Part shown: piece after piece, positions 1,407 to 48,013 of the stretch | How the letters are laid out: each line of letters opens with the position of its first letter | How positions within the stretch are numbered: the first letter of the stretch is position 1 | Notes under the pieces: generated by a model | Told to the model about the DNA's origin: nothing | What the model saw: the letters and a program-made list of their open reading frames with translations, nothing else | Database searches by the model: none | NCBI RefSeq assembly: GCF_006345805.1 | Contig: NC_043005.1 | Location: 33,356,001-33,420,000, forward strand | DNA: 64,000 nucleotides | Direction: 5' to 3' | From: Octopus sinensis | Lineage: Eukaryota | Translations under genes and position numbers: made by a program

Positions 1407-1631
1407 TTATATGTATATGGATTCATTTATAGTTGCATCTAATTATACACCTTAATTACTACACCTCCATTAATCCCAATCCTATCACAGAAACCAATTT
1501 CAATACATCCAATATATCTTAGTATTCATATTACATTATCAACACATCATGTGTATATATTATACTTTCCCACTCTCTCTCTCTCTCTCTATCTCAGATA
1601 TATATATATATATAAAGAGAGAGAGATATCT

Positions 1632-1672
<41 letters not shown>

Positions 1673-1723
1673 CATATATACATATATATATATACATATA
1701 TATGCATATATATATATACATAC

Positions 1724-1754
<31 letters not shown>

Positions 1755-1872
1755 CACATATATATATATATACATACATATATATATATACATATATTAT
1801 ATATATATGCATATATATATACATACATATATATATATATACGCGAGAAAGAAGCAACAAGAATGGATAGGT

Positions 1873-1963
1873 TTTTAGTACGATCGTTTCATACAAGGAC
1901 AGGTTTTATTAAAAGTTGCAAAGATTACAGCATATAAACGAGTCCCGTACTCATCAGCTAAAA
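1873..1963 (-). ncRNA. Minimal type I hammerhead ribozyme, mirror copy
   Basis: Exact reverse complement of 2092-2182 within the palindrome. Confidence 0.85.
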
Positions 1964-2091
1964 TACATGTAAGTTCTCTAGACATCCTAGTGTTTGAGGC
2001 TATACTCATGAAGTGATGTAGATAATTAATTATCTACATCACTTCATGAGTATAGCCTCAAACACTAGGATGTCTAGAGAACTTACATGTA

Positions 2092-2182
2092 TTTTAGCTG
2101 ATGAGTACGGGACTCGTTTATATGCTGTAATCTTTGCAACTTTTAATAAAACCTGTCCTTGTATGAAACGATCGTACTAAAA
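2092..2182 (+). ncRNA. Minimal type I hammerhead ribozyme (Penelope-like element type)
   Basis: Stem I TTTTAG(2092-2097)/CTAAAA(2177-2182); core CTGATGA 2098-2104; stem II GTACGGGAC/GTCCTTGTAT with a long loop; GAAA 2165-2168; 2-bp stem III closing palindromic CGATCG; GTA triplet, predicted cleavage after 2176. Confidence 0.85.
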
Positions 2183-2927
2183 ACCTATCCATTCTTGTTG
2201 CTTCTTTCTCGCGTATATATATATATATGTATGTATATATATATGTATGTATATATATATATAAAAACCTATCCATTCTTGTTGCTTCTTTCTCGCTTAT
2301 AATCACCCCACATTACTGTATTGTTAAATCAGTATAGTTTTTTTTGGTGCATCTAAGTTAGGTACCATATTCAAGTAAATTTTTTAAATTAACTTGAATC
2401 TTTATTGCTCTTTGTATATATATATATATATATAAAGAGAGAGAGAGAGATTAGTTTAGTTAGACGAGAAAATATGCGGACATTAAAATGATTATTATAA
2501 TCATCATTTTACCACGCATAAACATCATAGTTTTAACTTACACTTTTCATTGCTTGCATGGGTTGGGTGGAGATTTTATTGTAGCAGATTTTCTATGCCG
2601 AGATGCCCTTCCTGTTGGTAATCCTCAACTGTTTCCAAGCAAAGTAATATTTACACAGAATACTGGAAATGAATGGCACATTCTCATTGTCTTAGTGTCC
2701 AGTTTTCAATGTGTGTATGTTCACAACTTCCACACAATTGTTGAAAACACACAGACAGACACCTGCATGACTACATGAATTGGCATCTTTCATTTTCCAC
2801 CAACCAAGTCCATGCACAAGGCTTGGCCAGTCTGGAGCTATAGTAGAAAACACTTGCCCCAGGCGCCACATAATAGGACTGAAACCAAAACCTGGCTGAT
2901 TGCAAACTTCTTAAACACACAGCCGCG

Positions 2928-3452: not shown

Positions 3453-3790
3453 GGTACAGGCGTGGCAGTGTGGTAAGAAGCTTGGGTCCAAGTTCAGTTC
3501 CATTGCATGGCACCTTCGGCAAGTGTCTTCAACTATAACCTAAGGCTGACCAAGGCTTGTGAGTAGATTTGGTAGACAGAAACTGAAAGAAGTCTGTCAT
3601 GTATATGTGTGTGTGTGTGTGAGTATGTGTGCCTTTGTATGTGAGCGTTTGCCCTCCCTCCCCATCTCTTGACAACTGGTAGTATAAGTACCAGACTTGA
3701 ATAAGTACTGGGATCAATTCATTTGACTACAAATTCTTCAAGGTGGTGCTCCAGCATGGCACAGTCTAATGACTGAAACAAGTAAGAGAT
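3453..3790 (+). mobile_element. SINE family A, diverged copy
   Basis: Same head, core and tail as 38325-38737. Confidence 0.75.
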
Positions 3791-4202: not shown

Positions 4203-4459
4203 AAGCTATCAGGCTGAAACTTCGAAATCACTGTCACCACTCTCCCTGTAAAAGCATAATAATTTTGTACTCTACAAAATCATTCAGTAATTCTTCAGGT
4301 TTAATGTTAAGCTGTTTTTATTATAACTTGACATAAAAACAAATAAAAACAACTTAACATTAAACCTGAAGAATTACTGAATGATTTCTAGAGTACAAAA
4401 TTATAGTTTTTAGAGGGAGAGTTGTGACAGTGACCTTGAAGTTTCGGTTTGCTAGCTTT
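4203..4459. mobile_element. Fold-back MITE (about 120-bp inverted arms, about 20-bp spacer)
   Basis: AAATCATTCAGTAATTCTTCAGGTTTAATGTTAAG and CTTAACATTAAACCTGAAGAATTACTGAATGATTT are exact complements; outer arms are also complementary with mismatches. Confidence 0.8.
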
Positions 4460-5530: not shown

Positions 5531-6026
5531 AAAGATGGTTGCACAGTCAAGAATGCTGCTACCAAACAACTTTCCTACTTCACTTCCAAAGGTTGAGCAA
5601 GTAATTCTAAAATTCACCACTTCCATGCCAGTTTATGATGAAGAGCTTTCAGCCACCACCAAACTGCTCTCATCATCCTCACCAAAAGACTGCTTGTGCA
5701 TGATGTTGTTTAATGTGTAATTGTTGCACTCCAAGAAGCACATGACCCTTCACAAAAATGCTAACTGAACCCAATGGCAAGGAAACCAAGACAATTGGAG
5801 TTGTAAAACTTGTTACAGCCTTCATTTGCTTTCACACTGTTGAGTTAGGTAACTTCATCCACTTGGTCCACCATTGAGGTCATGAGAATGAAGCGCATTT
5901 GGCTTGGCTGCTACTAATAGACCCTCCTAGCATGGTTGCACCAGTCCAGGATGGCCTACTAGCAAGCAAGCCTCTACACCATGACATGGTAGGACCCTAG
6001 TTAGGGGTATACCTTGCCAAAAAAAA

Positions 6027-8520
6027 CATTCGAAGCGATAAGATTCGTTTCAGCTTCGCATGACTGTTTGGTACTAGGAGACTTCAACGCTCCCATGATC
6101 GATTGGCCCGCATCAATTTGTACAACATCTTCCCGGTTTGGCCAGGCCCTTCTTGACGTGGCTGAAGATTGTTTTCTATCGCAACATGTTGAATATCCGA
6201 CAAGGCATCAGTCTGGGCAGCAGCCATCTATGCTAGATCTGGTATTCTCCCGCTATCCAAGATCAGTGTCAGACGTATCTGTGTGCGCCCCTCTTGCCAA
6301 GAGTGATCATGCGGTCCTGAAGTTCGTCATGCACACAACTTTTTCTACGCCCACGACAACTTCGCTGCCACGTAGAGTCTTCTCTGCAATTAATCTTGAA
6401 ATTCTAACCGAGGCTTCCGCGCTTCTGGACTGGCGATCCCTGATGACGTTGTCCTCAGTTGACGAACTATGGTCATCCCTCAAAGCATATGTAATCTGTT
6501 TGACTGACCAGGCAGTTCCCGTTGGGCTTCCCAAGAGGAAGAAACACAAGCCCTGGGTGACGAAGAGGGTTAAACGAGAACGTCGACTCAGAGATATTGC
6601 TTGGGCTGAATTCAAAAATCTGGATTCGACTGCAGCTTTTGAGGTGTACAAAACTCAACGAGACCGAGCCGTGAAAATTGAAAAGAAAGAACGCTTCAGT
6701 TACGAATACAAAATCGCGGCAAATGCCAGTAGCAATCCAAAAACCTTCTTTGCCCATGTCCAGCGGAATTCCCGCTTGAACAACCAGATTGCAACGTTGG
6801 TAGACTCAACAGGCGTATCGATTGAAGACCCTTATCAACAGAGTCAATTATTTGCCGAGGCTTTTTCAACTATTTTCAAACAAGATGATGGTCGTGAACC
6901 CCCTCCATTTGATAGATCGGTACCTCCAATGCTTCGATTGGTCATCACGCGGGACGAAGTCAAACGTGTTATTCAAGGCCTCGATGTCAACAAAGGTCAC
7001 GGCCCTGACGGCATACACCCACGGGTTATCAAAGCGTTGGCTCCGGTCATCTGCGAGCCCTTAACACGACTATTCAATATGTCATTGGCGACGGGTGTTA
7101 TACCTGCAGACTGGAGAACAGCGATAATCTGCCCAATTTTCAAGAAAGGGGTCCACGAAGACCCGCTTAACTACCGACCGGTTTCCCTTACATCAATTAT
7201 CAGCAAGATGTTCGAAACCATCCTTAAGAAAAGTATGATGCTCCACCTCCTAAACACAGCCTCTATCTCTGATTCCCAACACGGCTTCGTGCCGAAGAGA
7301 TCATGCTTGACCAACCTACTAGTAATGGAAGAATTGGTGACGCGCATCCTCGATGATAGTGATGCTGTTGACATCGTTTTACTGGACTTTGCCAAAGCTT
7401 TTGACTCGGTAAACCACCGCCTATTGCTCGTCAAGCTTCAAGCATATAGTTTCCATCCGGATATTGTACGATGGGTTGGTGCCTTCCTCTCAGATCGCTC
7501 CTTCCAAGTCCAAGTTAATGGTTCGCGGTCCGACGTCTCCAGTGCGAGCAGTGGCGTGCCTCAAGGTTCAGTGCTTGGGCCCTTGTTGTTCTTAGTCTTC
7601 ATAAATGACTTGCCCGACGACCTCACGCAACACACCCTTCTATTTGCCGACGATATCAAACTGTTGCACTCACGGTAATATAGAGGATCTTCGTCGATGC
7701 CTCCACCAAATTTGGAAGTGGTCTAACAATTGGGACCTGTGTCTGAACGTGTCAAAGTGCTGTCATCTGCCTGTCGGCTCTACTCCTGCAACTCAACTTG
7801 ATTTTGAGCCGGGTCGTCTGCTGCTGGAGAGGACCGATCAGGTAAAGGACCTAGGTATCTTGGTGGATTCCTCCTTTTCGCCTTCGGCCCAGTGCGTCCA
7901 TGCTGCCAACAAAGCACGCGGAATTCTGTTCTTGATTCGACGGTCATTCGGAATGCTCACAGCAGCCATATTCCTACCACTCTATGTCACGCTGGTGAAA
8001 CCCATAGTGGAGTATGGGATTCAAGCCTCTTCTCCTTATCTCCTCAAAGACATACAGCATCTCGAAAGAGTCCAGAAGCTGGCTACCCGCATGGTTCATG
8101 GTCTCAAAAATTTGTCCTACGAAGAAAGGCTGAGGACGCTCGACCTTTATTCTCTTGAAAAACGCCGCCGCCGTGGTGATCTCATTCTCGCCCACAACAT
8201 CATAAGCGGAAAGTGTAACCTCTCGAAAGAGCTGTTCTTCACTCCTGCTCCAGAGCGTTGGCTGCGGGGTCATTCCGAAAAGCTCTACCTGCAACGATTT
8301 CATCTCAATCGAAGGAGAGGAGCTTTCTCCGTCCGGGTTGCGGATCCGTGGAACAAGCTGCCAGACGAGATGGTGAAGATGCCGACGACCGCTTAGTTCA
8401 AAGCCTCCCTTGACCTCAAGTGGCCTGAACTCTTTACATGAACACCACCCTGTACTTAACTCCATGTCCCCCTACATGGCCTTGCTATTTGCTTTTGAGC
8501 CAAATTAACTAACTAACTAA
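6027..8520 (+). mobile_element. CR1-group LINE, 5'-truncated ORF2 (APE C-terminus + reverse transcriptase)
   Basis: LGDFN, LDLVF, SDH endonuclease motifs; RT motifs NYRPVSLTS, QHGF, DFAKAFDSV, GVPQGSVLGPLLF, LFADD. Frameshift near 7665 and premature TAG at 8394; (TAAC)n tail; possible TSD CAAAAAA. Confidence 0.93.
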
Positions 8521-9143: not shown

Positions 9144-11788
9144 TCAAGTCATCCCATAAATTCTGTCCGATTTTACCTTTTTTAAAATTGAATGAAATTT
9201 AATAGTATTTTAGAATGTTTAATGGAATTTAAAATTATTTTTATGCATTTGTGTACATTTAAACTAATTAAATATTATTTTACAGAATAGAATTAAAATT
9301 TCTTTCGTTAAAACCCTTTCTAACATGGAAGTATCTAAAGAGCATTTGAGGCACATAATGCTTTATGAGTACAAAAAAGGAAACTCTGCAGCAGAAGCAA
9401 CTTGAAACATACACTCAGTTTATAGGAAAGAATGCTTGAATGAAATAACTTGCAGAAGATGATTTGCAAAATTCAGAAGTGGAAATTTCAGCCTTGAAGA
9501 TGAAGATCGAACAGGACATCCAGTTGAGTTTGATGATAAGTTCCTTGAGGCATTACTTGAAGAAAATCCTGCATTATCAGTTGTAGAATTGGCAATAAAA
9601 CTTAGTTCAAACCATACAACTGTTCATCGTCATCTTCAACAACTTGGAAAGTTTCCTAAGCTTGGAAAATGGATGTCTCATGAATTGTCCGAAAGCAACT
9701 GCAAATCCCGAGTTGACATCTGCTCTTCTCTCCATTCTCGTGAACTCATTTCACCCTTTTCAGATAGACTTGTGACAAAAAATGGATCTTCTATCAAAAT
9801 GTTAAATGACGTAAACAGTGGCTTGGTAAAAGGGGAAAAGCTCAACCACAACTGAAAAGGGAACTTCATGGGAAAAAGGTTCTTCTCTCTATCTCGTGAG
9901 ATTGCAAAGGAGTAATTCACTTTGACTTGTTACCACTTAATGCAACAATCATTGCTCAAGTCTACTGTCAGCAATTAAAGTGTTTGAACCAAGCTTTGAA
10001 GAAAAAAAGACCTGCTTTAGTGAATCGAAAAGGAGTGATGTTTCTTCAGGACAATGTGCAACGCCACACTGCAAAGATCACATCACAGAAGATCGAAGAG
10101 CTTGGTTGGGAAAAAACTCCTGATCTACCTTATTCTCCCAACCTTGCTCCTTCAGACTACCATTTGTTTCGTAGTTTACAGAATCATTTGGGGGACATAA
10201 CTTTCACAAACCAGGAGAAGGTCAAAACTGACATTTCTGACTTCTTCGCTTTGAAACCAAGAGTTTTACATTGATGGGATTAAAAAGCTTGTAAATAGAT
10301 GGAAGGAAGTCATAGATAATCAGGGAAAGTACATTGATGATTAGTTAGTTAGTTAGTTAGTTAGTTAATTTGGCTCAAAAGCAAATAGCAAGGCCATGTA
10401 GGGGGACATGGAGTTAAGTACAGGGTGGTGTTCATGTAAAGAGTTCAGGCCACTTGAGGTCCAGGGAGGCTTTGAACAAAGCGGTCGTCGGCATCTTCAC
10501 CATCTCGTCTGGCAGCTTGTTCCACGGATCCGCAACCCGGACGGAGAAAGCTCCTCTCCTTCGATTGAGCTGAAATCGTCGCAGGTAGAGCTTTTCGGAA
10601 TGACCCCACAGCCGACGCTCTGGAGCAGGAGTGAAGAACAGCTCTTTCGAGAGGTTACACTTTCCGCTTATGATGTCGTGGGCGAGAATGAGATCACTAC
10701 AGCGGTGGCGTTTTTCAAGAGAATAAAGGTCGAGCGTCCTCAGCCTTTCTTCGTAGGACAAATTTTTGAGACCATGAACCATGCGGGTAGCCAGCTTCTG
10801 GACTCTTTCGAGATGCTGTATGTCTTTGAGGAGATAAGCTGTGAGCATTCCGAATGACCGTCGAATCAAGAACAGAATTCCGCGTGCTTTGTTGGCAGCA
10901 TGGACGCACTGGGCCGAAGGCGGAAAGGAGGAATCCACCAAGATACCTAGGTCCTTTACCTGATCGGTCCTCTCCAGCAGCAGACGACCCGGCTCGAAAT
11001 CAAGTTGAGTTGCAGAGTAGAGCCGACAGGCAGATGACAGCACTTTGACACGTTCAGACACAGGTCCCAATCGTTAGACCACTTCCAAATTTGGTGGAGG
11101 CATCGACGAAGATCCTCTATATTACCGCGAGGAGCGACCAGTTTGATATCGTCAGCAAATAGAAGGGTGTGTTGCGTGAGGTCGTCGGGCAAGTCATTTA
11201 TGAAGACTAAGAACAACAAGGGCCCAAGCACTGAACCTTGAGGCACGCCACTGCTCGCACTGGAGACGTCGGACCGCGAACCATTAACTTGGACTTGGAA
11301 GGAGCGATCTGAGAGGAAGGCACCAACCCATCGTACAATATCCGGATGGAAACTATATGCTTGAAGCTTGACAAGTAATAGGCGGTGGTTTACCGAGTCA
11401 AAAGCTTTGGCAAAGTCCAATAAAACGATGTCAACAGCATCACTATCATCGAGGATGCGCGTCACCAATTCTTCCATTACTAGTAAGTTGGTCAAGCATG
11501 ATCTCTTCGGCACGAAGCCATGTTGGGAATCAGAGATAGAGGCTGTGTTTAGGAGGTGGAGCATCATACTTTTCTTAAGGATGGTTTCGAACATCTTGCT
11601 GATTATTGATGTATGGGAAACCGGTCGGTAGTTAAGCGGGTCTTCGCGGATCCCTTTCTTGAAAATTGGGCAGATTATCGCTGTTCTCCAGTCTGCAGGT
11701 ATAACACCCGTTGCCAAATTTCAAATATAACATTTGATAGCTTGTTTTCTTTATTCAAAATTCAGACAGAACTTATGAGATGACCTGA
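9144..11788 (+). mobile_element. Mariner (DD34D-type) transposon, defective, interrupted by a LINE
   Basis: TIRs TCAAGTCATCCCATAAATTCTGTCCGA / TCAGACAGAACTTATGAGATGACCTGA with TA on both sides. Transposase 9325-10344 (MEVSKEHLRH..WMSHEL..QDN..YSPNLAPSDYHLF..GKYIDD*) has stops and frameshifts. Inserted in a (CAATATACCTA)n array. Confidence 0.92.
10342..11717 (-). mobile_element. CR1-group LINE, second 5'-truncated copy
   Basis: Near-identical reverse complement of about 7087-8520, (TAAC)n tail at 10342-10366, 72-nt in-frame deletion relative to 7964-8035. Confidence 0.93.
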
Positions 11789-13126: not shown

Positions 13127-16125
13127 ATCATCATCATCATCATCGTTTAGCGTCCGTTTTCCATGCTAGCATGGGTTGGACGGGTCAACTGGGGTCTGTG
13201 AAGCTGGAAGGCTTCGTCAGGCCCAGTCAGATCTGGCAGTGTTTCTACGGCTGGATGCCCTTCCTAACGCCAACCACTCCGCGAGTGTAGTGGGTGTTTT
13301 TTACGTGCCACCTGCACAGGTGCCAGACAGAGCTGGTGAACGGCCACGAACGGATGGTGCTTTTACGTGTCACCGGCTCGGGGCCAGGCGATGCTGGCAA
13401 CGGACACGGACGGATGGTGCTTTTACGTGCCACCGACACGGGGCCAGACAGAGCTGGCAAATGGCCACGAACGGATGGTGCTTTTACGTGCCACCGACAC
13501 GGGGCCAGACAGAGCTGGCCAACGGCCACGAACGGACGGTGCTTTTACGTGTCACCGGCACGGCGCCAGGCGAGGCTGGCAACGAACACGAACGGATGGT
13601 GCTTTTACGTGCCACCAACACGGGGCCAGGCAGAGCTGGCAAACGGCCATGAGCGAATGGTGCTTTTACGTATCACCGGCACGGGTGCCAGACGAGGCTG
13701 ACAGCGGACACGAACAGATGGGTCACTTAACCCCTGCTTTCTGATATATGATTTGATTTTGATTGTTCTCACTGGTCTTGCCGGGTCTTCTCACGCACAG
13801 CATACTTCCATAGGTCTCGGTCTCTGGTCATTTCCTTGGTGAGACCTAGAGTTCGAAGGTCGTGCTTCACCACCTCGACCCAGGTTTTCCTGGGTCTACC
13901 TCTTCCACAGGTCCCCTCAACTGCCAGGGTGTGGCACTTTTTCACACACCTATCTTCATCCATTCTCACCACATGACCATACCAGCGCAATCGTCTCTCT
14001 TGCACACAACATCTGATTCCTCTTAGGTCCAACTTTCTCTCAAGGTACTTACACTCTGTCGACTATGAACACTGACATTACACATCCAACGGAGCATACT
14101 AGCTTCATTTCTCGCGAGCTTACGCATGTCCTCAGCAGTCACGGCCCATGTTTCACTGCCATGTAGCATGGCTGTTCGTACACATGCATCATACAGTCTG
14201 CCTTTTACTCTGAGCGAGAGGCCTTTAGTCACCAACAGAGGTAAGAGCTCCCTAAACTTTGCCCAGGCTATTCTTACTCTAGCCGTTACACTTTCAGCAC
14301 ACCCACCCCCACTACTGACTTGGTCACCAAGATAACGGAAGCTATCAACCACTTCTAGTTTTTCCCCCTGGAAAGTGACGGAAGTTGTTTTCTGCAGATT
14401 TTCAGAGGTTAATGCTCCCGAGCATCTGCCACATACAAAAACCATCTTCCTAGTTAGCCTTCCTATGACATTGCTGCACCTCTTATGTGTCCATAGCTTA
14501 CACTTGGTGCATTTTATAGAGTTTCTACCTACACCTTTTCTACAGATCGAGCAGGCCATCTACCTGAAGGCGTTTGTGATTTGTCTACCTTCCTACTTAT
14601 TACGACTTTGGTTTTAGCTAGGTTGACTCTAAGGCCCTTCGATTCTAAACCATGCTTCCACACCTGAAACTTCTTCTCCAGTTCTGATAATGACTCAGCA
14701 ATTAGAGCAAGGTCATTAGCATAGAGGAGCTCCCAGGGGCATCCTGTCTTGAATTCCTCCGTTATTGCCTGGAGGACTATGATAAATAGGAGGGGGCTGA
14801 GGACTGAGCCTTGGTGGACCCCTACCTCTACCCGGAATTCTTCACTGTACTCATTTCCAACCCTCACCTTACTAGCAGCGTCCCTGTACATGGCTTGCAC
14901 AGCTTTCACTAACCATTCTTCTATTCCTAGTTTCCTCATTGACCACCATATGAGGGATCGGGGGACCCTGTCGAAGGCTTTCTCCATGTCAACAAAAGCC
15001 AGGTACATGGCCTTATCTTTGGCTAGGTATTTCTCCTGCAGCTGCCTTACCAGGAATATAGCATCAGTGGTACTTTTCCCTGGCACGAAACCAAACTGCA
15101 TCTCATCTAAACTAACTCTCTCTCTAATTAGTTGGCTTATGACCCTCTCTGTAACCTTCATCACCTGATCCAACAGCTTGATACCTCTGTAATTATTTGT
15201 ATCTAGGGCATCACCTTTACCTTTGTAGCAGTTGACTATTATGCTGCTACACCAGTCATTGGGTATGACTCCTTCATGTATCACCTGATTAACTATACAG
15301 GTGACTAGGCTATAGCCGACACTACCAGATATTTTGAGCATCTCTGCAGTGATACCTGATGGGCCTGGGGCTTTCCCTGTCTTCATGCTTCTAATTGCCT
15401 TAGCTACTAAGGAACTATCAACCCTGATAGCTGGTCCCTCTGTTGGGTCAACGTTCGGCAGACTCTCTTTATCCCATTCATTTTCTTTATTCAGCAACCT
15501 TTCATAGTGGCATCTCCAAGCCTCTCTCTTTGCATCCTCGTTTAGCGCAAGTGAACCATCTTCCATGCGAACACACTTCTCTCCCACCACATCACAATTC
15601 TCTCTCACACACTGTCTTGCAACGCGAAACACCTCCAGTCTTTGGTCCTCACGGCGCAGAACATTGGCAAATTTTTTCTTATCTGCTTCCCCTCTGGCTA
15701 GATAGACCTGTCTCCTAGCTTCCCTTTTAGCAGTCTGATACAATTCCCTGCTACCACCATTCTTCCAGTGCTTCCAAGTCTGTCTCTTTTCTCTAATAGC
15801 CCTGTCTACGACACTGTTCCACCACCACGTTACCTTGGGACGAGAGGGGACTTTGCACCAGCCACAGATCTGGTCAGTGGCTCTCAGCAGGTTGTCCCTT
15901 AGAAACGTCCAGTTGTCCTCTACACCATGTGATACACTATCCCCTTCTACTTCGTCAAAGGCTTCAAGTAACATGTCTCTAAATCTCTGTCCATTCACAG
16001 GATCCTTAAGCTTCCAGATCCTTCTTCTCCATGTTGGTCGTCTTCTGGTTGTCCTCCTACTCCTGATCCTAAAGTCACTAACTACCAGTCTATGTTGTGG
16101 GGTGCATTCTTCGCCTGGGAAGGTT
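13127..16125 (-). mobile_element. RTE-clade LINE, 5'-truncated, with PHD-like Cys/His cluster and 3' UTR tandem repeats
   Basis: QHRLVV (APE end), NYRGIKLL, QFGF, DMEKAFDRV, GVHQGSVLSPLLF, LYAND (mutated YADD), RRLRWYGHV, RGRPRKTW; frameshifts near 14545 and 14030; (GAT)n tail. Confidence 0.93.
13296..13720. repeat. Minisatellite of about 51-bp units in the RTE 3' UTR
   Basis: About 8 copies of GCCAGACAGAGCTGGCAAACGGCCACGAACGGATGGTGCTTTTACGTGCCACCGACACGGG-like units. Confidence 0.9.
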
Positions 16126-18965
16126 TGTGCATCCAAAACAGCAAACACCTTCAACACAAGGCTAGAGTTAATTTCTATATTGTTACCAACTCCAACAAAG
16201 CTGTAGAGCTAGACTAAATGCAAACATCCAATAAATCTGAATTCAATAGGCCACCATGTTGCTAATAAGACAAACAACAAATTCTTGAATCATTCTAAAA
16301 TTGATCAACACTGGCTGAGAGATATATTCATTCCAGCAGCCAACCTAGTTTGAGGATTATCTAGCGATCAGGATACAAAACTCTAAGTAACAAAATGCTG
16401 TAAGCTGGAACTATAATCCTAAGGGTGTGTATCTGTGTGCGTGTACACGCCTGTATGTGCATGTGTGTGCTTGAGTGTATATGTGTGTGTGTGCATGTGT
16501 CCGTGTTTGTGTATGTATGTGTGTGTATGTCTGTGAATATATGTATGTGTGCATGCTTGTGTGTGTTGGTATTTGTGTGCTATGCATAAGACAAAAAGAA
16601 CTGATTTGAGATGTGATGATAATAATGATGAGTTTAAAAGATGGAACATGATAATAATAAAAAAAAAGAAGAAAAAGTGTCTGCCAGTAAAAAGAGCTCA
16701 GCTGGAGGAGGAGGAGGAACACCCCCAGGTAGTCAGGTTAGGCAATCATAAAGAACCATTGTTTTTGTTGGCATCATTCCACTGTCCTGAAAGTTTTTAG
16801 GGGACCTCAACCACATTCTTACCATACACATACACACACGCAAAACACACACACACAGCTGTAAAACCTATTAACAGAAACTACAATATTTCCTATTTAC
16901 AGAAATTCAACTAATTATTTTTATAAGAGCTGTTATTGTAATTAGCAAACACCACTTCAACAACAACATAAGTGATAACAATGACAAATTCAAGTGGATC
17001 TTGGCCCACCTTGTCTGACATATTGATGGCTGGCGATTCCATCTATGCCAGAGGTAAAACTCAAATCAACAAAGGAGCCACTATATGACAGCTGCTGACG
17101 AGCTGACCTACTAGAAATAGAAGCCAAATTTCTTTCAAAATTATACTCAACCATTTTTAAGGAAAAGGTGGGATATATTGAATAATTTGGTCCAAGTAAA
17201 ACTGTTTGAAAAGGCAGGATGATCATGGCAGAAATACCTTTGACCATAAGTCTTCTCAACCATAACTGACCCAGGGCTAAACAAACAATATCAGCAACCA
17301 CTTGGTTGCATAATGTTAAATGCTAAATGAGTAAAAAGAGATGAAATTGTAGATTTATTAATGAAGAATCCATGTATGACTTGGAGTTATTCCATCTTCA
17401 TCAAACTTATTTTTGCGAGGTTAACATCTATTATTTGTTTAAGGAATGTTCTAGAAGGCAACTAACGCCTTTAAGAAACATTATCTTATTAAATAATATC
17501 AATAACTATGTACAATTTATTGTACTTCTTTTTATTTCTTTTTATTCTTTTATTTCTTCTAGTTTCTTCTTCTTTCCTGATCACATATATACAGTATTAG
17601 CTCATAGAGAATTTTTATTGAAAACCCATTGCGGTAAATTATAATTTTTATGAGGTAATATATTTAAAAATCAAATAAAACACTCCTCTCACTGAATATT
17701 TATTTATCTAATCCAATAGTTTTCGAATAGAGCATCACAAGTACCTAAGTGAGATATAGATTTGACTTTGGTATCCAACCACAGAAACTAAATGACACAT
17801 ACAAGCACCAATCTATAACAGTAGTGGCACCCAATAAGAAATGACTTTAACTGTGACAACCCATCCAGGCCATACATCATTAAAAGTAAACAGAAAATGA
17901 CAATCATTTAACCCTTTCATTAGTATATTTTTATTGAAATATACTGCCTTTACTTCAAGTAATAATGAAGAATTTATTAAGATAATTTGTCATTATAAAG
18001 CTGTTGTTTGGAGTATAATTAATATGAGTGTAATTAACATGAGTATAACTACCATGAAATTTAAAGGAAGATTGTATTATTTAGATTATTTAAAACAAGG
18101 AATTTGTATCATAGAATACCTGAGTCTCTTGAAACAAAACATGTTACTCATAGTTTTGTCCCACTCATAAATATGGTTGGTAAAATGACTTAAAGCAAGT
18201 ATTTTTCTATATTTTTTCTATATTTTAAATCTTAAAACTTTCTTTAACTTTCAATGTAAAGTTCACCAATAAGTTTTTATTTAATCATCAAGATGACTCA
18301 CAATGTCAAAACAGACTAGAATCACTGCTTTAGTTAATTGTAAAAGATTAAATGCCTGCAATAATTCTAAGAGGAATGATGATGTTGCAGTTACTGCTGC
18401 TGATGATGATAATGAATATGTATAATGACTACAGATCTTTAATCAAAGATGTCCCATCTCACCTTTTTTTCTTTTCAGGTAGTGTACCCAGCAATCTAAC
18501 CCCACCCTCTTATTATCACACCCCTCACCATATTCCCATACCTATCATACCCTTACCCTCACCATACACCAGATAATCCCAGGGCTGGTACTTAGTTCCA
18601 GTTTCATAACATTCAGCAGAAAAGTGACAGTAAATCTTCCCTCTCAATAGAATGTTGGTGTATCACAAAGATCATTCCCAGATGATCTCATTACACCAAT
18701 TCCTAAGAACTTAGTGAACTCAGTAATGGAAACTTAAATTTACATCATGTAAGTTAAATTGAACTCAAGACCAATGAGTTGATAGTTTAACTTGACTTTC
18801 ATTCAGCTGTTCTGCTTCTTACTATAGAATATAAGTGTCTCTTTATCTTATCAACCACAGATGAATGAAAGTCTACTAGTAAGACTTGAACCAGAAACCA
18901 GAAGGGTACTGAATGACCAACCATAGAACATCCAGTTTCATTTTCAATTGTCAAAGACATTTTTA

Positions 18966-20278
18966 TGTCAAAGGAAGGCTAACTAGGAAGATGGTTTTTG
19001 TATGTGGCAGATGCTCAGGAACAATAAACACTGAAAATGCTCTGAGACCAACTTCCGTCACTTTCCAGGGAGAAAAACTAGAAATAGTTGATAGTTTCCG
19101 TTACCTAGGTGACCAAGTCAGCAGTGGGGGCGGGTGTGCTGAAAGTGTAACTGCTAGAGTAAGAATAGCTTGGGCAAAGTTCAGAGAGCTCTTACCTCTA
19201 CTGGTGACAAAAGGCCTCTCGCACAGAGTGAAAGGCAGACTGTATGATGCGTGTGTACAAACAGCCATGCTACATGGCAGTGAAACATGGGCCGTGACTG
19301 CTGAGGATATGCGTAAGCTCGCTAGAAATGAAGCCAGTATGCTCCGATGGATGTGTAATGCCGGTACTCACACTCGGCAGAGTGTAAGTACCTTGAGAGA
19401 AAAGCTGGACCTAAGAAGCATCAGTTGTGGTGTGCAAGAGAGACGTTTGCGCTGGTATGGTCATGTGGCGAGAATGGATGAAGATAGTTGTGTGAAAAAG
19501 TGCCACACCCTAGCGGTTGAGGGAACCTGTGGAAGAGGCAGACCCAGGAAAACCTGGGACGAGGTGGTGAAGCACGACCTTCGAACTTTAGGTATCACTG
19601 AGGAAATGGCTAGAGACCGAGACCTCTGGAAGTGTGCTGTGCGCGAGAAGACCCGGCAGGACAAGTGAGTCCATAACCCGTGGCCTTCTACATGGGATGG
19701 AGCCAGCCTACGTATGCATACCTTCCCTTCTTGGGACACAAAACTCTACTTGTGAAGACGTGATGAGGCAAGTGAGGATCAGAATCGAAATCGATCAATG
19801 GAAATTGCGGATGTGCTACCAGTGCCGGTGGCATGTCAAAACTCTGCTTGTGAAGACCCGTTGAGGCAAGTGACGATCAGAATCGAAATCGATCAATGGA
19901 AATCGATCAATGGAAATTGCAGATGTGTTACCAGTGCCGGTGGCATGTAAGAGAACTTTCCGTTTCGCGACCGTTGCCAGCACCGCCCCGTTTCGTGTCC
20001 GTTGCCAGCCTCGCCTGGCCCTCGTGCCGGTGGCACATAAAAAGCACCATCCGTTCGTGGCCGTTTGCCAGCTCTGTCTGGCACCAGTGCGGGTGGCACG
20101 TAAAAAGCACCCACTACACTCACGGAGTGGTTGGCGTTAGGAAGGGCATCCAGCCGTAGAAACACTGCCAGATTTGACTGGGCCTGATGAAGCCTTCTGG
20201 CTTCACAGACCCCAGTAGAACCGTCCAACCCATGCTAGCATGGAAAACGGACGCTAAACGATGATGATGATGATGATG
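18966..20278 (+). mobile_element. RTE LINE, short 5'-truncated copy
   Basis: ORF 18913-19668 matches the C-terminus of the 13127-16125 element; (GAT)n tail; TSD ATTTTTA at 18959-18965 and 20279-20285. Confidence 0.92.
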
Positions 20279-40107: not shown

Positions 40108-41349
40108 CTGGTAATGAAGTAACAAATAATCACAGTGAAATATGCTATCAGTGAATGGAGATCAATAGTCAATCATTTCAAATAAAGACTAAAGATTAAT
40201 GGTGTCTAAAATATAGATCATTAGTCAACAGTTTTCTATGAAGAGCTACTAAAGATCTTCAGAAAAGTCAAGTGAAATTAGCCAAGTTCAGTTTCATTTA
40301 TTGCTAATGTTAACTTCAGGTCAACCCTGATTCAATACAATTATGATTAAAAGTATTCCAACCATGACCATTATGCCTAAGTTCAAACTTTGGTGTATCT
40401 AACACTACATTATTCAATTTATTTTTCCATTTATTTTCAAACTGTAGACAGACAGAAAGCACATGTATGTGTGCATCATCATCATCATCATCATTTAATG
40501 TCCAAGTTCTATGCCAGCATGTCTGTGAGTTTTTGGTTATCACTTCTATTTCCCTCATTACCAAATTCAACATTACCATCGTCATTATCTTCACCATCCT
40601 CATAATCACTTTTATTTCCATTTACCAATGTGCTGCTCTCATTATTTCAATACAACCATCTCCTGTACCAGTTATATATCATGACACTGAGGCAAACTGG
40701 GAATTTAATGTGGTATATGAACCATTCAGATACTACATTAAATCCCCAGTTTTACATCAAGAGACTGGTGATAGCCAGTCTCTTGATGTAAAAAAAAAAA
40801 TGGAGCAAAAAGAATAAAAGAAACTAATAACAGAAAGGGTTCGGATCTAGAAAGGATCTAACTGTATTTTTCTCAGATACTATTATCATTTCTAATTTCA
40901 TCACAAAAACCTGATAATTAATTAAAAACAGAACAGTTTACTTCCGCAGCCAGATGACATCAATCGAATAGCAACTTCGTATTAGGTCAGCATGACCCGA
41001 AATAATAGACGTAACAATTTAAGGGGAACGACTCTGAAAAATATTTCATTTAGAGTTATTCCCCTCAAAGTTTTTATTGCTATATAACTACCGGTAAAGC
41101 GATTTCAGATTACCTCCCATTCACATATAACCCCTACCACCACCACCATCACCGTGATAGCAAATAAGGAGATAATGGGTGAACCCATTAAATGTATGTG
41201 TTGATGTTTATTGTGTGTGAATGCGTAATGTACATTTGTAAATGAAATGGAAAGTAATGTAAAGTAAAGAGAAAGTCGGAGCTTTCATTTAGTTAGAGTT
41301 TTCACTTAGTTACTTAAAGCTGAAGAAATTTGAAAGAAGCATATCCAGA

Positions 41350-45322: not shown

Positions 45323-47730
45323 ATAATATCTGTAAATTTTTGTTCGTCAACAAATTTGTTGGAAGAATGTGTGGAGTAAGTTCAACATTTTGAAAAACTG
45401 GTAAAGATTAGCAACACGAAGGGCACCCAAGTGCAAAACAATGCTTAAGATATTTATTTCACATGAGAGAGTCAGTTGTTTATAACAATCCACAATCAAA
45501 GATATTTTTCAACCAGAGGTCAGTTCAATTGAATTCAAGAATAATAGAAGTAATGATTTACAGCAAAATCTTGGGAGTGGATTTGGAAGACAGAAACTGA
45601 AAGAAGCCTCCTGTGTGTGTGTGTCTTGATATCCCCCCAGCAGTTGTAAATGAGTGTCACTGTCATACAAGTGATATCTTTCATTTCCAATCTTACACGA
45701 AAACATGTCTAGCCGGAAGTATTCATTATCCTGCTTGGAAACAGGTGGGGACTGGCAACAGGGAGGGCATCTGGCCATACAAAATCTTCAAAGAAATATG
45801 CTTGATCCATGCAAGCATGTAAAATGTCAACATTAAGACGATAAATATTATCATCACCATCATTAGCATGGACATTTAACATAATCATCTCCCTAGCTCT
45901 TGATGGTTCACCACTGATGCACTTACACGATACAGTTACCAATTCCTATTTGTTCTTTTAAATAAGTTTCATACTTTTTACAGATGTTTTAGTTTATCAA
46001 GCTAAAGCTACCAAATTATGTCCCTTCTTATAAGTTACTTACCTTTACTAATCTAACACACCCTTTCTTTTCCTTAAGCATGTAAATTAATTTTATCAAA
46101 TTAATTGTTAAGTTATTAAAATTATCTTCCCTTTACTTTAAAACTCCACAACAGTTGCCGCTAGATTTTTGATTTCCTTCTCCAGCTAAGAGAGAAAATT
46201 TCAATAAATTGTAAATATTTTGTATATACCATTATTCAGTACATGACATTTTAGTTTATATATCTTTCAGCATCTTACATCTTCACCCTATAAATCTATC
46301 TCATGCCATTTATATATCTTTCACGTCTATATCTTGCCCTGTCGTATCTGTTTTTTACTTGCCAACCTCTCCTCCAATTGCATACAAAGTTAATCCAGTG
46401 TAATTCTAAATTTATAAGTAAAACTAAAATATTATTGATAGGTAAACAATTAAGTGAAACAGTTCCAGCTGGGAATCAAAACCAATTTGTTGAGAACTTT
46501 ATAGAAAGGTTCATTTTATGTATGTTTTTGTTTGTTTGTTTTTTTCTCCAAATTTTTACAAGAAGTTTCATTCCTATTCAATGATCTATTTGGACCAATA
46601 TTCTCATCTTGGTTATTAGAGCCACAATGATTCTACCAATTTTGTACATTGTTGGCATCATTCTTCAAGGATTTACCATATTTAGTGACAGTCAGGGAAT
46701 GTTGAACCAGATCATAAGAGCACACTGTTCCCATTCTGCCGTCCATACCTGTATTAGTTATTCTTGTATAAGTTGTTCAGTACATTCATTTCTTGTTTCC
46801 TCATTCAATGTTGTTCAGATTCCAGAAATAAAGTTCAAAAGGATTTTTTAAAAATTGAATTGCTATAAGATTGTTGGTCTTTGATAAACAATAATAAATT
46901 CATCAATATGTTCTTATGCTACAAGAGTTCAAAACACACCCAGCTCTTCTCTGAACTAACAAAGGGACTTCTATATGGTCACTTGAATTGCTAAGAATAA
47001 CAAACTCCCTCATACCACACCTTAATGTCTTAAAAATGGAAAGATATTTTGGAGAGAGATACTACACCTGCAAAAAAAAAAATAGGATAGTCACATTTAA
47101 AATACCTTTGATCATAGGTCTACTGGATACAAGTCACTTCAAAGTTAAACAATCCAAAGGTGTTCTTAATTCAGTGCCACTACATTACAGCAAATTTTTA
47201 GAAAAAAACACTATCTTGGCTGGTAGATTTAATCCAATATCTAGATTAACGTTACCATCTAGTTCTTGGCTGCCTTTCATAGAATCAACTCTGTTGCAAG
47301 CACTTGGGAATAGGTCTCTAGTTTGAGAATTGTTTCCTCTCTACCTCCCACCAACCAAAGCCCAACCATCTTTCTCCTCCTCCTCCTCCATCAACCATCA
47401 AGCAATTTCTCTCTCTCTCCAATTAACCAGAGCCAAGCCGTTTCTCTGGACTAAAGGATGAACAAAAACTACCTACCCTTGACGTGGATGAACTCACTTA
47501 TTTAATATTAAATGTTCTGAGAATAAATAATGAAACATTTACAGACCTGAGCTCACAACAAATGAATTATTAACTAAAACCTTACCCCTTTGACTGGTTT
47601 GTCTGTTCACCTTGCATTTAAACTTTATGAAAAATGAAACTACATTGTTTTTCTTTTAAGCTACATTACACACAGTAGTACTTATAATCTTAATTAATCT
47701 TCAAATGAATCCTTTCTTTACCATACTTAC

Positions 47731-47883
47731 ATTTTTGTTTTCACGAAACAGAGTGCATGCTTCATTAAAGATGTACTTGCGTTCCTCTTGTGTGTCTTGC
47801 AAGTTTCCGGACAAGGACTGCCATTCTCTAGACATACGTAGGATTTGTCTATACAGAGACAGCACTGTTCCTCGATGGGACAT
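47731..47883 (-). CDS. LYRM1: LYR motif-containing protein 1, first coding exon (exon spans 47731-47924 including 5' UTR)
   Basis: Translates MSHRGTVLSLYRQILRMSREWQSLSGNLQDTQEERKYIFNEACTLFRENKN (LYR motif, downstream F). Closely parallels the LYRM1 N-terminus as I recall it (VLGLYRSIFRLARKWQATSG..YILNEARTLFRKNKN). Phase-0 donor GTAAGT at 47730; pyrimidine tract plus AG acceptor at 47925-47926. Confidence 0.93.
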
Positions 47884-48013
47884 TTCCTTCTCCCTCACAA
47901 CACTCTTTTCTGGACTTAAACAGCCTAGTTGAGGAGTAATTAAAGAAAAAGGTAAACATTCAAAAGACAGAAACTAAAAAATAGCCAAAATCATTTGTCT
48001 GTTACTCTGATAG

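Follow-up and report, generated by a model that had tools for sequence, protein, structure and literature searches.

Why should two hammerhead ribozyme motifs stand back to back, on opposite strands, in an inverted repeat without a single mismatch? The question arises in a 64,000-nucleotide stretch of Octopus sinensis DNA, which we call the window. An exact-palindrome scan of all 64,000 positions, with spacers of 0 to 10 allowed, gave, at 1810-2245, two 218-bp arms that match throughout and meet without a spacer at 2027/2028, just as an earlier, sequence-only reading of the same DNA had described; a separate repeat search of the window agrees. The runner-up in the exact scan is a mere 39 bp of pure AT. 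The sequence-only reading had taken these 436 bp to be the feature. They stand as an exact palindrome; as the bounds of an element they do not, since (TA)n microsatellite makes up 66 of the 436 bp, the non-repetitive core being 1843-2212, and the element itself runs on to about 2414. Each arm is made up of 185 bp of element and an outer 33 bp of interrupted (TA)n. Table 1 sets out the parts of the locus.

Table 1. Features of the palindrome locus, in window coordinates.
Positions	Strand	Feature	Basis
1598..1626	+	Left copy of a 29-nt candidate target-site duplication, (TA)n-AA-(GA)n; of low complexity and tentative	Longest flank match
1635..1842	.	Interrupted (TA)n array to the left of the inverted arm, ending in 33 nt that mirror 2213-2245	Palindrome scan
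1810..2245	.	Exact 436-bp palindrome with 218-bp arms	Palindrome scan and repeat search
1843..2027	-	Left arm: inverted copy of the 185-bp element end, including family-minority alleles	185/185 identical to right arm
1873..1963	-	Mirror minimal type I hammerhead motif, predicted cut after 1879	Descriptor search
2026..2029	.	Native TTAA micro-palindrome; 5'-truncation and inversion point of the window copy	Other copies continue upstream, 4/4 runs
2028..2212	+	Right arm: 5'-truncated, pLTR-like end of a high-copy repeat	Matches in sequencing-run contigs
2092..2182	+	Minimal type I hammerhead motif, predicted cut after A2176	Descriptor search, folding
2178..2212	+	First direct copy of a 35-nt, tail-sized segment, directly after the predicted cut	Palindrome scan
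2213..2261	.	49-nt interrupted (TA)n block, missing from other copies here	Run-contig records 17 and 19 skip 84 nt
2262..2296	+	Second direct copy of the 35-nt segment, starting 1-3 nt past the predicted cut	35/35 identical
2297..2414	+	The element's own continuation, with two predicted hairpins, the last at 2369-2399	Run-contig joins, folding
2418..2446	+	Candidate target-site duplication, right copy	Longest flank match

Both arms do hold the full hammerhead core with stems I and II that had been noticed in them: a hammerhead descriptor picked out two sites in the window and none in 100 shuffled windows. On the plus strand, CTGATGA lies at 2098-2104 and GAAA at 2165-2168. Stem I of the right arm (2092-2097/2177-2182) consists of six Watson-Crick pairs with no extension possible, and stem II (2105-2113/2155-2164) of nine pairs, two of them G-U, with one bulge. 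Loop II, said to be unusually long, measures 41 nt (2114-2154) and is predicted to fold in part as a prolongation of stem II. Stem III is an 8-nt palindrome, ACGATCGT, at 2168-2175, with a self-duplex of -10 kcal/mol, in keeping with the proposal of a minimal type I hammerhead with palindromic stem III. The motif sits in the repeated end, 36 nt before the 3' end of the arm. The Rfam hammerhead search that the sequence-only reading had recommended came back empty: there were no Rfam matches at gathering score over the whole window, and hammerhead families are absent among the 71 matches to E = 10 in 1500-2600. The 41-nt loop II is likely to defeat the Rfam hammerhead models. We rejected the microRNA matches from the same search, which lie below gathering score and merely reflect the perfect hairpin.

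Would such a ribozyme cleave? The sequence-only reading held that a transcript started at the centre of the palindrome could do so. For a monomer this is doubtful, because the active fold is predicted at -19.7 kcal/mol against -28.3 kcal/mol for the arm's best fold, a gap of 8.6 kcal/mol. A dimer in cis is no help. The twin ribozymes point away from each other, and with the motifs on opposite strands a transcript carries at most one sense copy.

What the palindrome is becomes clearer from its relatives. Fourteen of the 24 sequencing runs listed contain at least half of 31 sampled words from 2028-2400; these 14 carry six organism labels and come from six studies, and some hold just 5-90 million letters. 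The share of sampled words in any RNA run is at most 0.07 (six RNA runs listed). Contigs of four runs (X1, X2, X3 and X8) were matched to 1990-2395, X1 being perhaps the window's own source and so non-independent. The matches came to 2,547 contigs in X1, 554 in X2, one in X3 and six in X8, with a likeness of 80-100% and in most cases at least 95%. Judged by these counts and likenesses, the hammerhead-bearing repeat is very abundant and young. Five positions in the arm vary at more than 5%, none of them in the core or in stems I or III; this counts for little, as about 30 of the 185 positions are at stake and the probability of such an outcome by chance is about 0.4. A stem II variant at 2158 (about 6%) retains a G-U pair, and two-sided stem covariation was not seen among the run-contig variants listed.

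The relatives also shed light on the centre of the palindrome. Contigs matching from 2026 carry a different upstream sequence in all four runs (11, 2, 1 and 1 contigs; up to 157 nt). Because other copies continue upstream in this way, the centre of the palindrome reads as a 5' truncation at the native TTAA. The known extent of the family is at least about 490 nt, composed of 157 nt upstream (X8), 2026-2212 and 2297-2414. The 12-nt loose end of one X1 contig, before 2134, has the letters expected for a head-to-head fold-back. This second fold-back is centred on a native TTGCAA (2134-2139), and the contig ends 15 nt beyond, as a k=31 contig would; it is one contig among the 15 listed of 63 loose ends, and could be a library artefact. 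With the other copies single-armed and one folding back elsewhere, the twin looks like an accident of a single insertion. The two arms also agree in letters that most of the family does not have. At 2114, for instance, about 87% of X1 depth has a letter other than that of both arms, and family-minority letters held in common point to one template, in vivo or by artefact. None of the 25 contigs listed of 3,127 pieces crosses the palindrome centre, and no joint is listed there; a centre-crossing contig would not show as a joint, because the query took in both sides of the centre.

Downstream of the right arm, the table shows a third piece. That 2297 onward belongs to the element, and is not flank, follows from records 17 (X3) and 19 (X8), which join the arm straight to the downstream part and omit exactly 84 nt, the 49-nt (TA)n block plus one 35-nt copy. 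Run-contig matching covered the element up to 2395, and loose ends resemble the window to about 2409. The fold of 2297-2414 has a stability of z = -2.9, with four of 300 shuffles as stable. At this one locus the 35-nt segment, which is of tail size, is duplicated in direct orientation. Its second copy begins almost at the predicted ribozyme cut, at a distance that can be given only as a range of 1 to 3 nt because the (TA)n block itself ends in TA. The chance of a start at the cut is about 1% if starts are uniform over the 305 known positions and about 3% (1/35) if the junction must fall on TA, both being post hoc estimates from a single case.

The third piece is a possible footprint of a self-cleaved RNA that served as template. 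Taken further, the whole block 1627-2417 could stem from a single integration that caught the ribozyme in action: self-cleaved RNA would have been copied to a 5' run-off at the hammerhead cut (2262-2414), with a jump across (TA)n to uncleaved RNA and a fold-back at TTAA. We think this fuller story unlikely, if far from fanciful. The third piece may start where it does for other reasons, a staggered endonuclease cut among them. Read depth along the element does not rise after the cut site, but depth here is not copy number and we give it no weight. Neither 2177 nor 2212 is listed as a recurrent end in the run contigs. In the largely non-subscription literature covered, we found no reports of Penelope-like element (PLE) genomic pieces that start at the hammerhead cut. 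A piece that begins at the cut makes it simple to ask, across a genome, if PLE hammerheads are active in vivo and supply templates for reverse transcription. If the idea is true and 5' ends pile up at the cut, this would be genomic evidence of PLE hammerhead cleavage inside the cell, with the product a template for reverse transcription. Such in-cell cleavage went unseen in a study of the anole element Poseidon, and Craig et al. call the matter unclear (both are discussed below).

The block as a whole is bracketed by a candidate target-site duplication. Positions 1598-1626 and 2418-2446 are identical and form the longest stretch common to both flanks. Among the 68 runs of (TA)≥5 in the window, both strands counted, a (TA)n-to-(GA)n junction ends two, and these are just the two candidate copies. 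If the candidate duplication is false, two separate insertions in one microsatellite would give the same picture. We had also considered the 33-nt flank common to both arms as proof of self-copying, on a crude estimate of 0.002. This was downgraded on account of the local array: among 16 other starts in the left array, one matches 32 nt, which leaves the 33-nt match weak for self-copying. The left flank contains, besides, a short inverted duplication at 1575-1640, in which the letters of about 1589-1600 return in reverse at about 1627-1638, immediately past the candidate duplication.

How does the locus compare with known systems? We draw here on the passages of each source that were covered. 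Cervera and de la Pena (2014; PMC4209133) defined minimal type I hammerheads in the pLTRs of metazoan PLEs. They described dual minimal hammerheads of Schistosoma mansoni on opposite strands, 100-700 bp apart, and found cleavage of a single minimal hammerhead not to be detectable. The window motif resembles theirs in its conserved core, long stem II and short palindromic stem III, and in belonging to mostly ORF-less copies. It differs in its 41-nt loop II and in having G-U and not G-C at the base of stem II. The window's two motifs, which are predicted ribozymes, also differ from the described pairs in being exact mirror images without a spacer. The loop has near precedents in a table of Craig et al. 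(2021; PMC8557442), where loops run from 3 to 10 nt in the Hydra clade and reach 29 and 35 nt in two motifs from Selaginella, so that 41 nt is long without being wholly out of range.

The arrangement of the copies is equally familiar. Arkhipova et al. (2013; PMC3846280) reported inverted pLTRs and palindromic head-to-head junctions, which they attributed to self-priming, and Craig et al. described an adjacent inverted 5'-truncated copy, a tail of 30-40 bp and (TA)n targeting, with (TA)n targets in the Hydra, Naiad and Neptune clades. They call the function of the hammerhead in EN+ PLEs unclear. A 5'-truncated copy with an adjacent inverted copy is present at our locus, and the likeness to EN+ PLEs extends to the position of that copy at the 5' end, the head-to-head palindromic junction, the presence of a segment in the 30-40-bp size range and the (TA)n target. 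Unlike those described by Craig et al., the window insertion is ORF-less, and its 35-nt segment is directly duplicated around (TA)n and begins at the predicted cut. By inspection, the window element is unlike the Hydra-1_Obim hammerhead and unlike the 3' ends of Naiad_Obim, _Ovul and _Omin.

A further comparison is Poseidon PAc of Anolis carolinensis (Frangieh et al. 2024; PMC11167929). There both target strands are cut and extended, and internal initiation defines the tail, which is about 85 nt or more after the cut. The PAc ribozyme needed protein, no reads began at the cut, and the ORF starts inside the ribozyme. Our element is like PAc in having its hammerhead near the insertion ends and in its AT-rich target, and extension of two strands could yield head-to-head products. 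It is unlike PAc in that no long ORF starts in the window arm and in that a genomic piece starts at the cut. For octopus itself, recently active Penelope-like families are listed in Octopus vulgaris (PMC13282606), and ribozymes go unmentioned in the passages covered.

Putting these strands together, the window copy is in our view probably the 5'-truncated end of a very high-copy hammerhead repeat, likely Penelope-like, inserted in (TA)n, with a mirror arm likely copied from the same molecule during insertion. The pairing itself we expect, with good though incomplete confidence, to be a routine side effect of Penelope-like insertion, a process for which hammerheads paired head to head have been described before. 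In the course of events that we envisage, the endonuclease of an autonomous partner would nick (TA)n DNA, and target-primed reverse transcription would start near the 3' end of the element (about 2414), behind the predicted stem-loop. The reverse transcriptase would copy back to about the predicted ribozyme cut (2262), pause or switch template across the (TA)n block, and restart at 2212. It would stop at TTAA, where the cDNA end could anneal to itself or to a second cDNA and be extended into the inverted arm, the new end then joining (TA)n on the left. Several proposals of the sequence-only reading survive in this account. All element ends at the palindrome locus, the one locus examined, adjoin (TA)n, which bears out (TA)n as the target. 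The suggested link to PLEs remains likely, on the minimal ribozyme form, the high copy number and the published PLE layouts. The layout works like a PLE end, and membership of that family is likely. Two points count against it: no reverse transcriptase or GIY-YIG ORF could be linked to the repeat, and in PAc the tail lies well behind the cut, not at it.

The nearest competing account overlaps with this one. In retrozymes, units of 150-450 bp, whose ribozymes are as a rule canonical, follow one another head to tail (Cervera and de la Pena 2020, PMC7229834; preprint 10.64898/2026.07.22.740005). The preprint argues that retrozymes derive from pLTRs, which blurs the line between the retrozyme and PLE readings. 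The repeat might then be a non-LTR retrozyme, or a similar non-autonomous unit cycling via circular RNA, that underwent an aberrant inverted insertion. Like animal non-LTR retrozymes, it is non-coding and high-copy, has a type I hammerhead and is likely PLE-mobilised; its low GC and lack of an ORF agree, and a unit running from cut to cut would account for a piece with its start at the cut site. Yet the window has no head-to-tail array or tandem unit, the family extends over at least about 490 nt against 170-400 nt for retrozyme circles, and the ribozyme, with its 41-nt loop II, belongs to the minimal PLE type, whereas the canonical form has a stem II of 4 bp. We regard a retrozyme origin as distinctly unlikely. 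Still less probable is that the palindrome was made by the library or the assembler, with (TA)n linking a fold-back read to a different contig and polishing making the arms alike. Zero mismatches, zero spacer, two ends in microsatellite and the absence of a centre-crossing contig among those listed are what such an artefact would leave. Against it stand the short arms with differing flanks, a centre that falls on a native micro-palindrome at the truncation point, a second copy with the same geometry elsewhere, a layout published for real PLE insertions and a candidate target-site duplication around the block.

To the idea put forward in the sequence-only reading, that the paired ribozymes form a selected self-silencing or bidirectional regulatory cassette, we give next to no credence. 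Read-through RNA is predicted to fold as a 183-pair hairpin of -332 kcal/mol, and bidirectional promoter motifs have been suggested for rotifer pLTRs (PMC3846280, in the passages covered); both would suit a regulatory role. Against it, other copies are one-armed (4/4 runs) and the point of fold-back varies, one copy folding back elsewhere. Identical arms, moreover, speak of recent origin and not of conservation. The by-product reading leaves the locus likely inert, or the source of a long double-stranded RNA if it is read through. As a model, the suggestion that this RNA could be a substrate for ADAR or Dicer is physically sound: if transcribed, perfect 200-bp hairpins would be substrates for RNA editing and small-RNA pathways. 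Since the layout is known, the palindrome as it was first posed matters little. The wider interest lies in the family, whose abundance and youth provide insertion junctions by the thousand, on which to test how fold-back at native micro-palindromes gives rise to inverted ends.

Where, then, is the coding partner? The sequence-only reading advised a search for copies and for their link to PLE ORFs; copies are abundant in run contigs, and no such link was found in the window. No GIY-YIG domain was found among the 105 window ORFs in a Pfam scan, nor in a six-frame motif scan. The three reverse transcriptase ORFs in the window are LINE-type by domains and sequence and unrelated to the repeat. The window thus has no PLE-clade reverse transcriptase or GIY-YIG, as expected of a stub. 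Beyond the window, two short motifs of the element were absent from the Naiad, Chlamys and Hydra consensus files of PMC8557442, where a match split between two lines could escape notice. The consensus ends of octopus Naiad and Hydra gave no match to the element by inspection; the sequence of the palindrome family was not found in this, the one PLE consensus set searched. A 50-codon frame at 2028-2177 was considered as the end of an ORF and rejected. It drew 38 matches, none below 1e-10 and all of them weak and in multiple stretches; nine of the 38 were scanned, of which seven are Ig-like or pilin repeat proteins and none has a reverse transcriptase or GIY-YIG domain. Three of the five arm variants are synonymous in this frame, which is not significant. 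With weak matches to repeat proteins only, the arm frame agrees with the earlier view of the insertion as non-coding.

A pattern scan of metagenomes gave two loci, each a chance hit within GC-rich coding sequence of bacteria. These (L001 and L002) lie in a serine hydrolase-like bacterial gene, L002 seemingly missing about 280 nt from the interior that are present in L001. In viral contigs, a protein-pattern scan, with two of three stretches confirmed, and a gapped DNA pattern each gave no loci, outcomes to which we attach no weight.

The rest of the window has its own share of mobile DNA. Several copies of one SINE-like repeat, two of them mutually inverted, lie at 1264-1390, 2783-2930 and 3455-3600. 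Near 4261-4410 there is, by eye, an imperfect inverted repeat with arms of about 70 bp, MITE-like or a fold-back, and at 40750-40793 an inverted repeat outside microsatellite sequence, whose perfect 19-bp arms are 6 nt apart. Two near-identical LINE copies (APE endonuclease and reverse transcriptase, frameshifted) lie in opposite orientation about 2 kb apart at 6005-8396 (+) and 10432-11720 (-), with a mariner-type transposase remnant between them at 9463-10274. RTE-like LINE ORF pieces occupy 13769-16208 (-) and 18913-19668 (+), the C-terminal part being duplicated on the opposite strand; a PHD-finger match at 14023-14559 follows the reverse transcriptase domain of this LINE and is not in an upstream ORF. 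Finally, a Complex1_LYR match (E 4.4e-07) at 47701-47973 (-) is likely an exon of a host LYR-motif gene.
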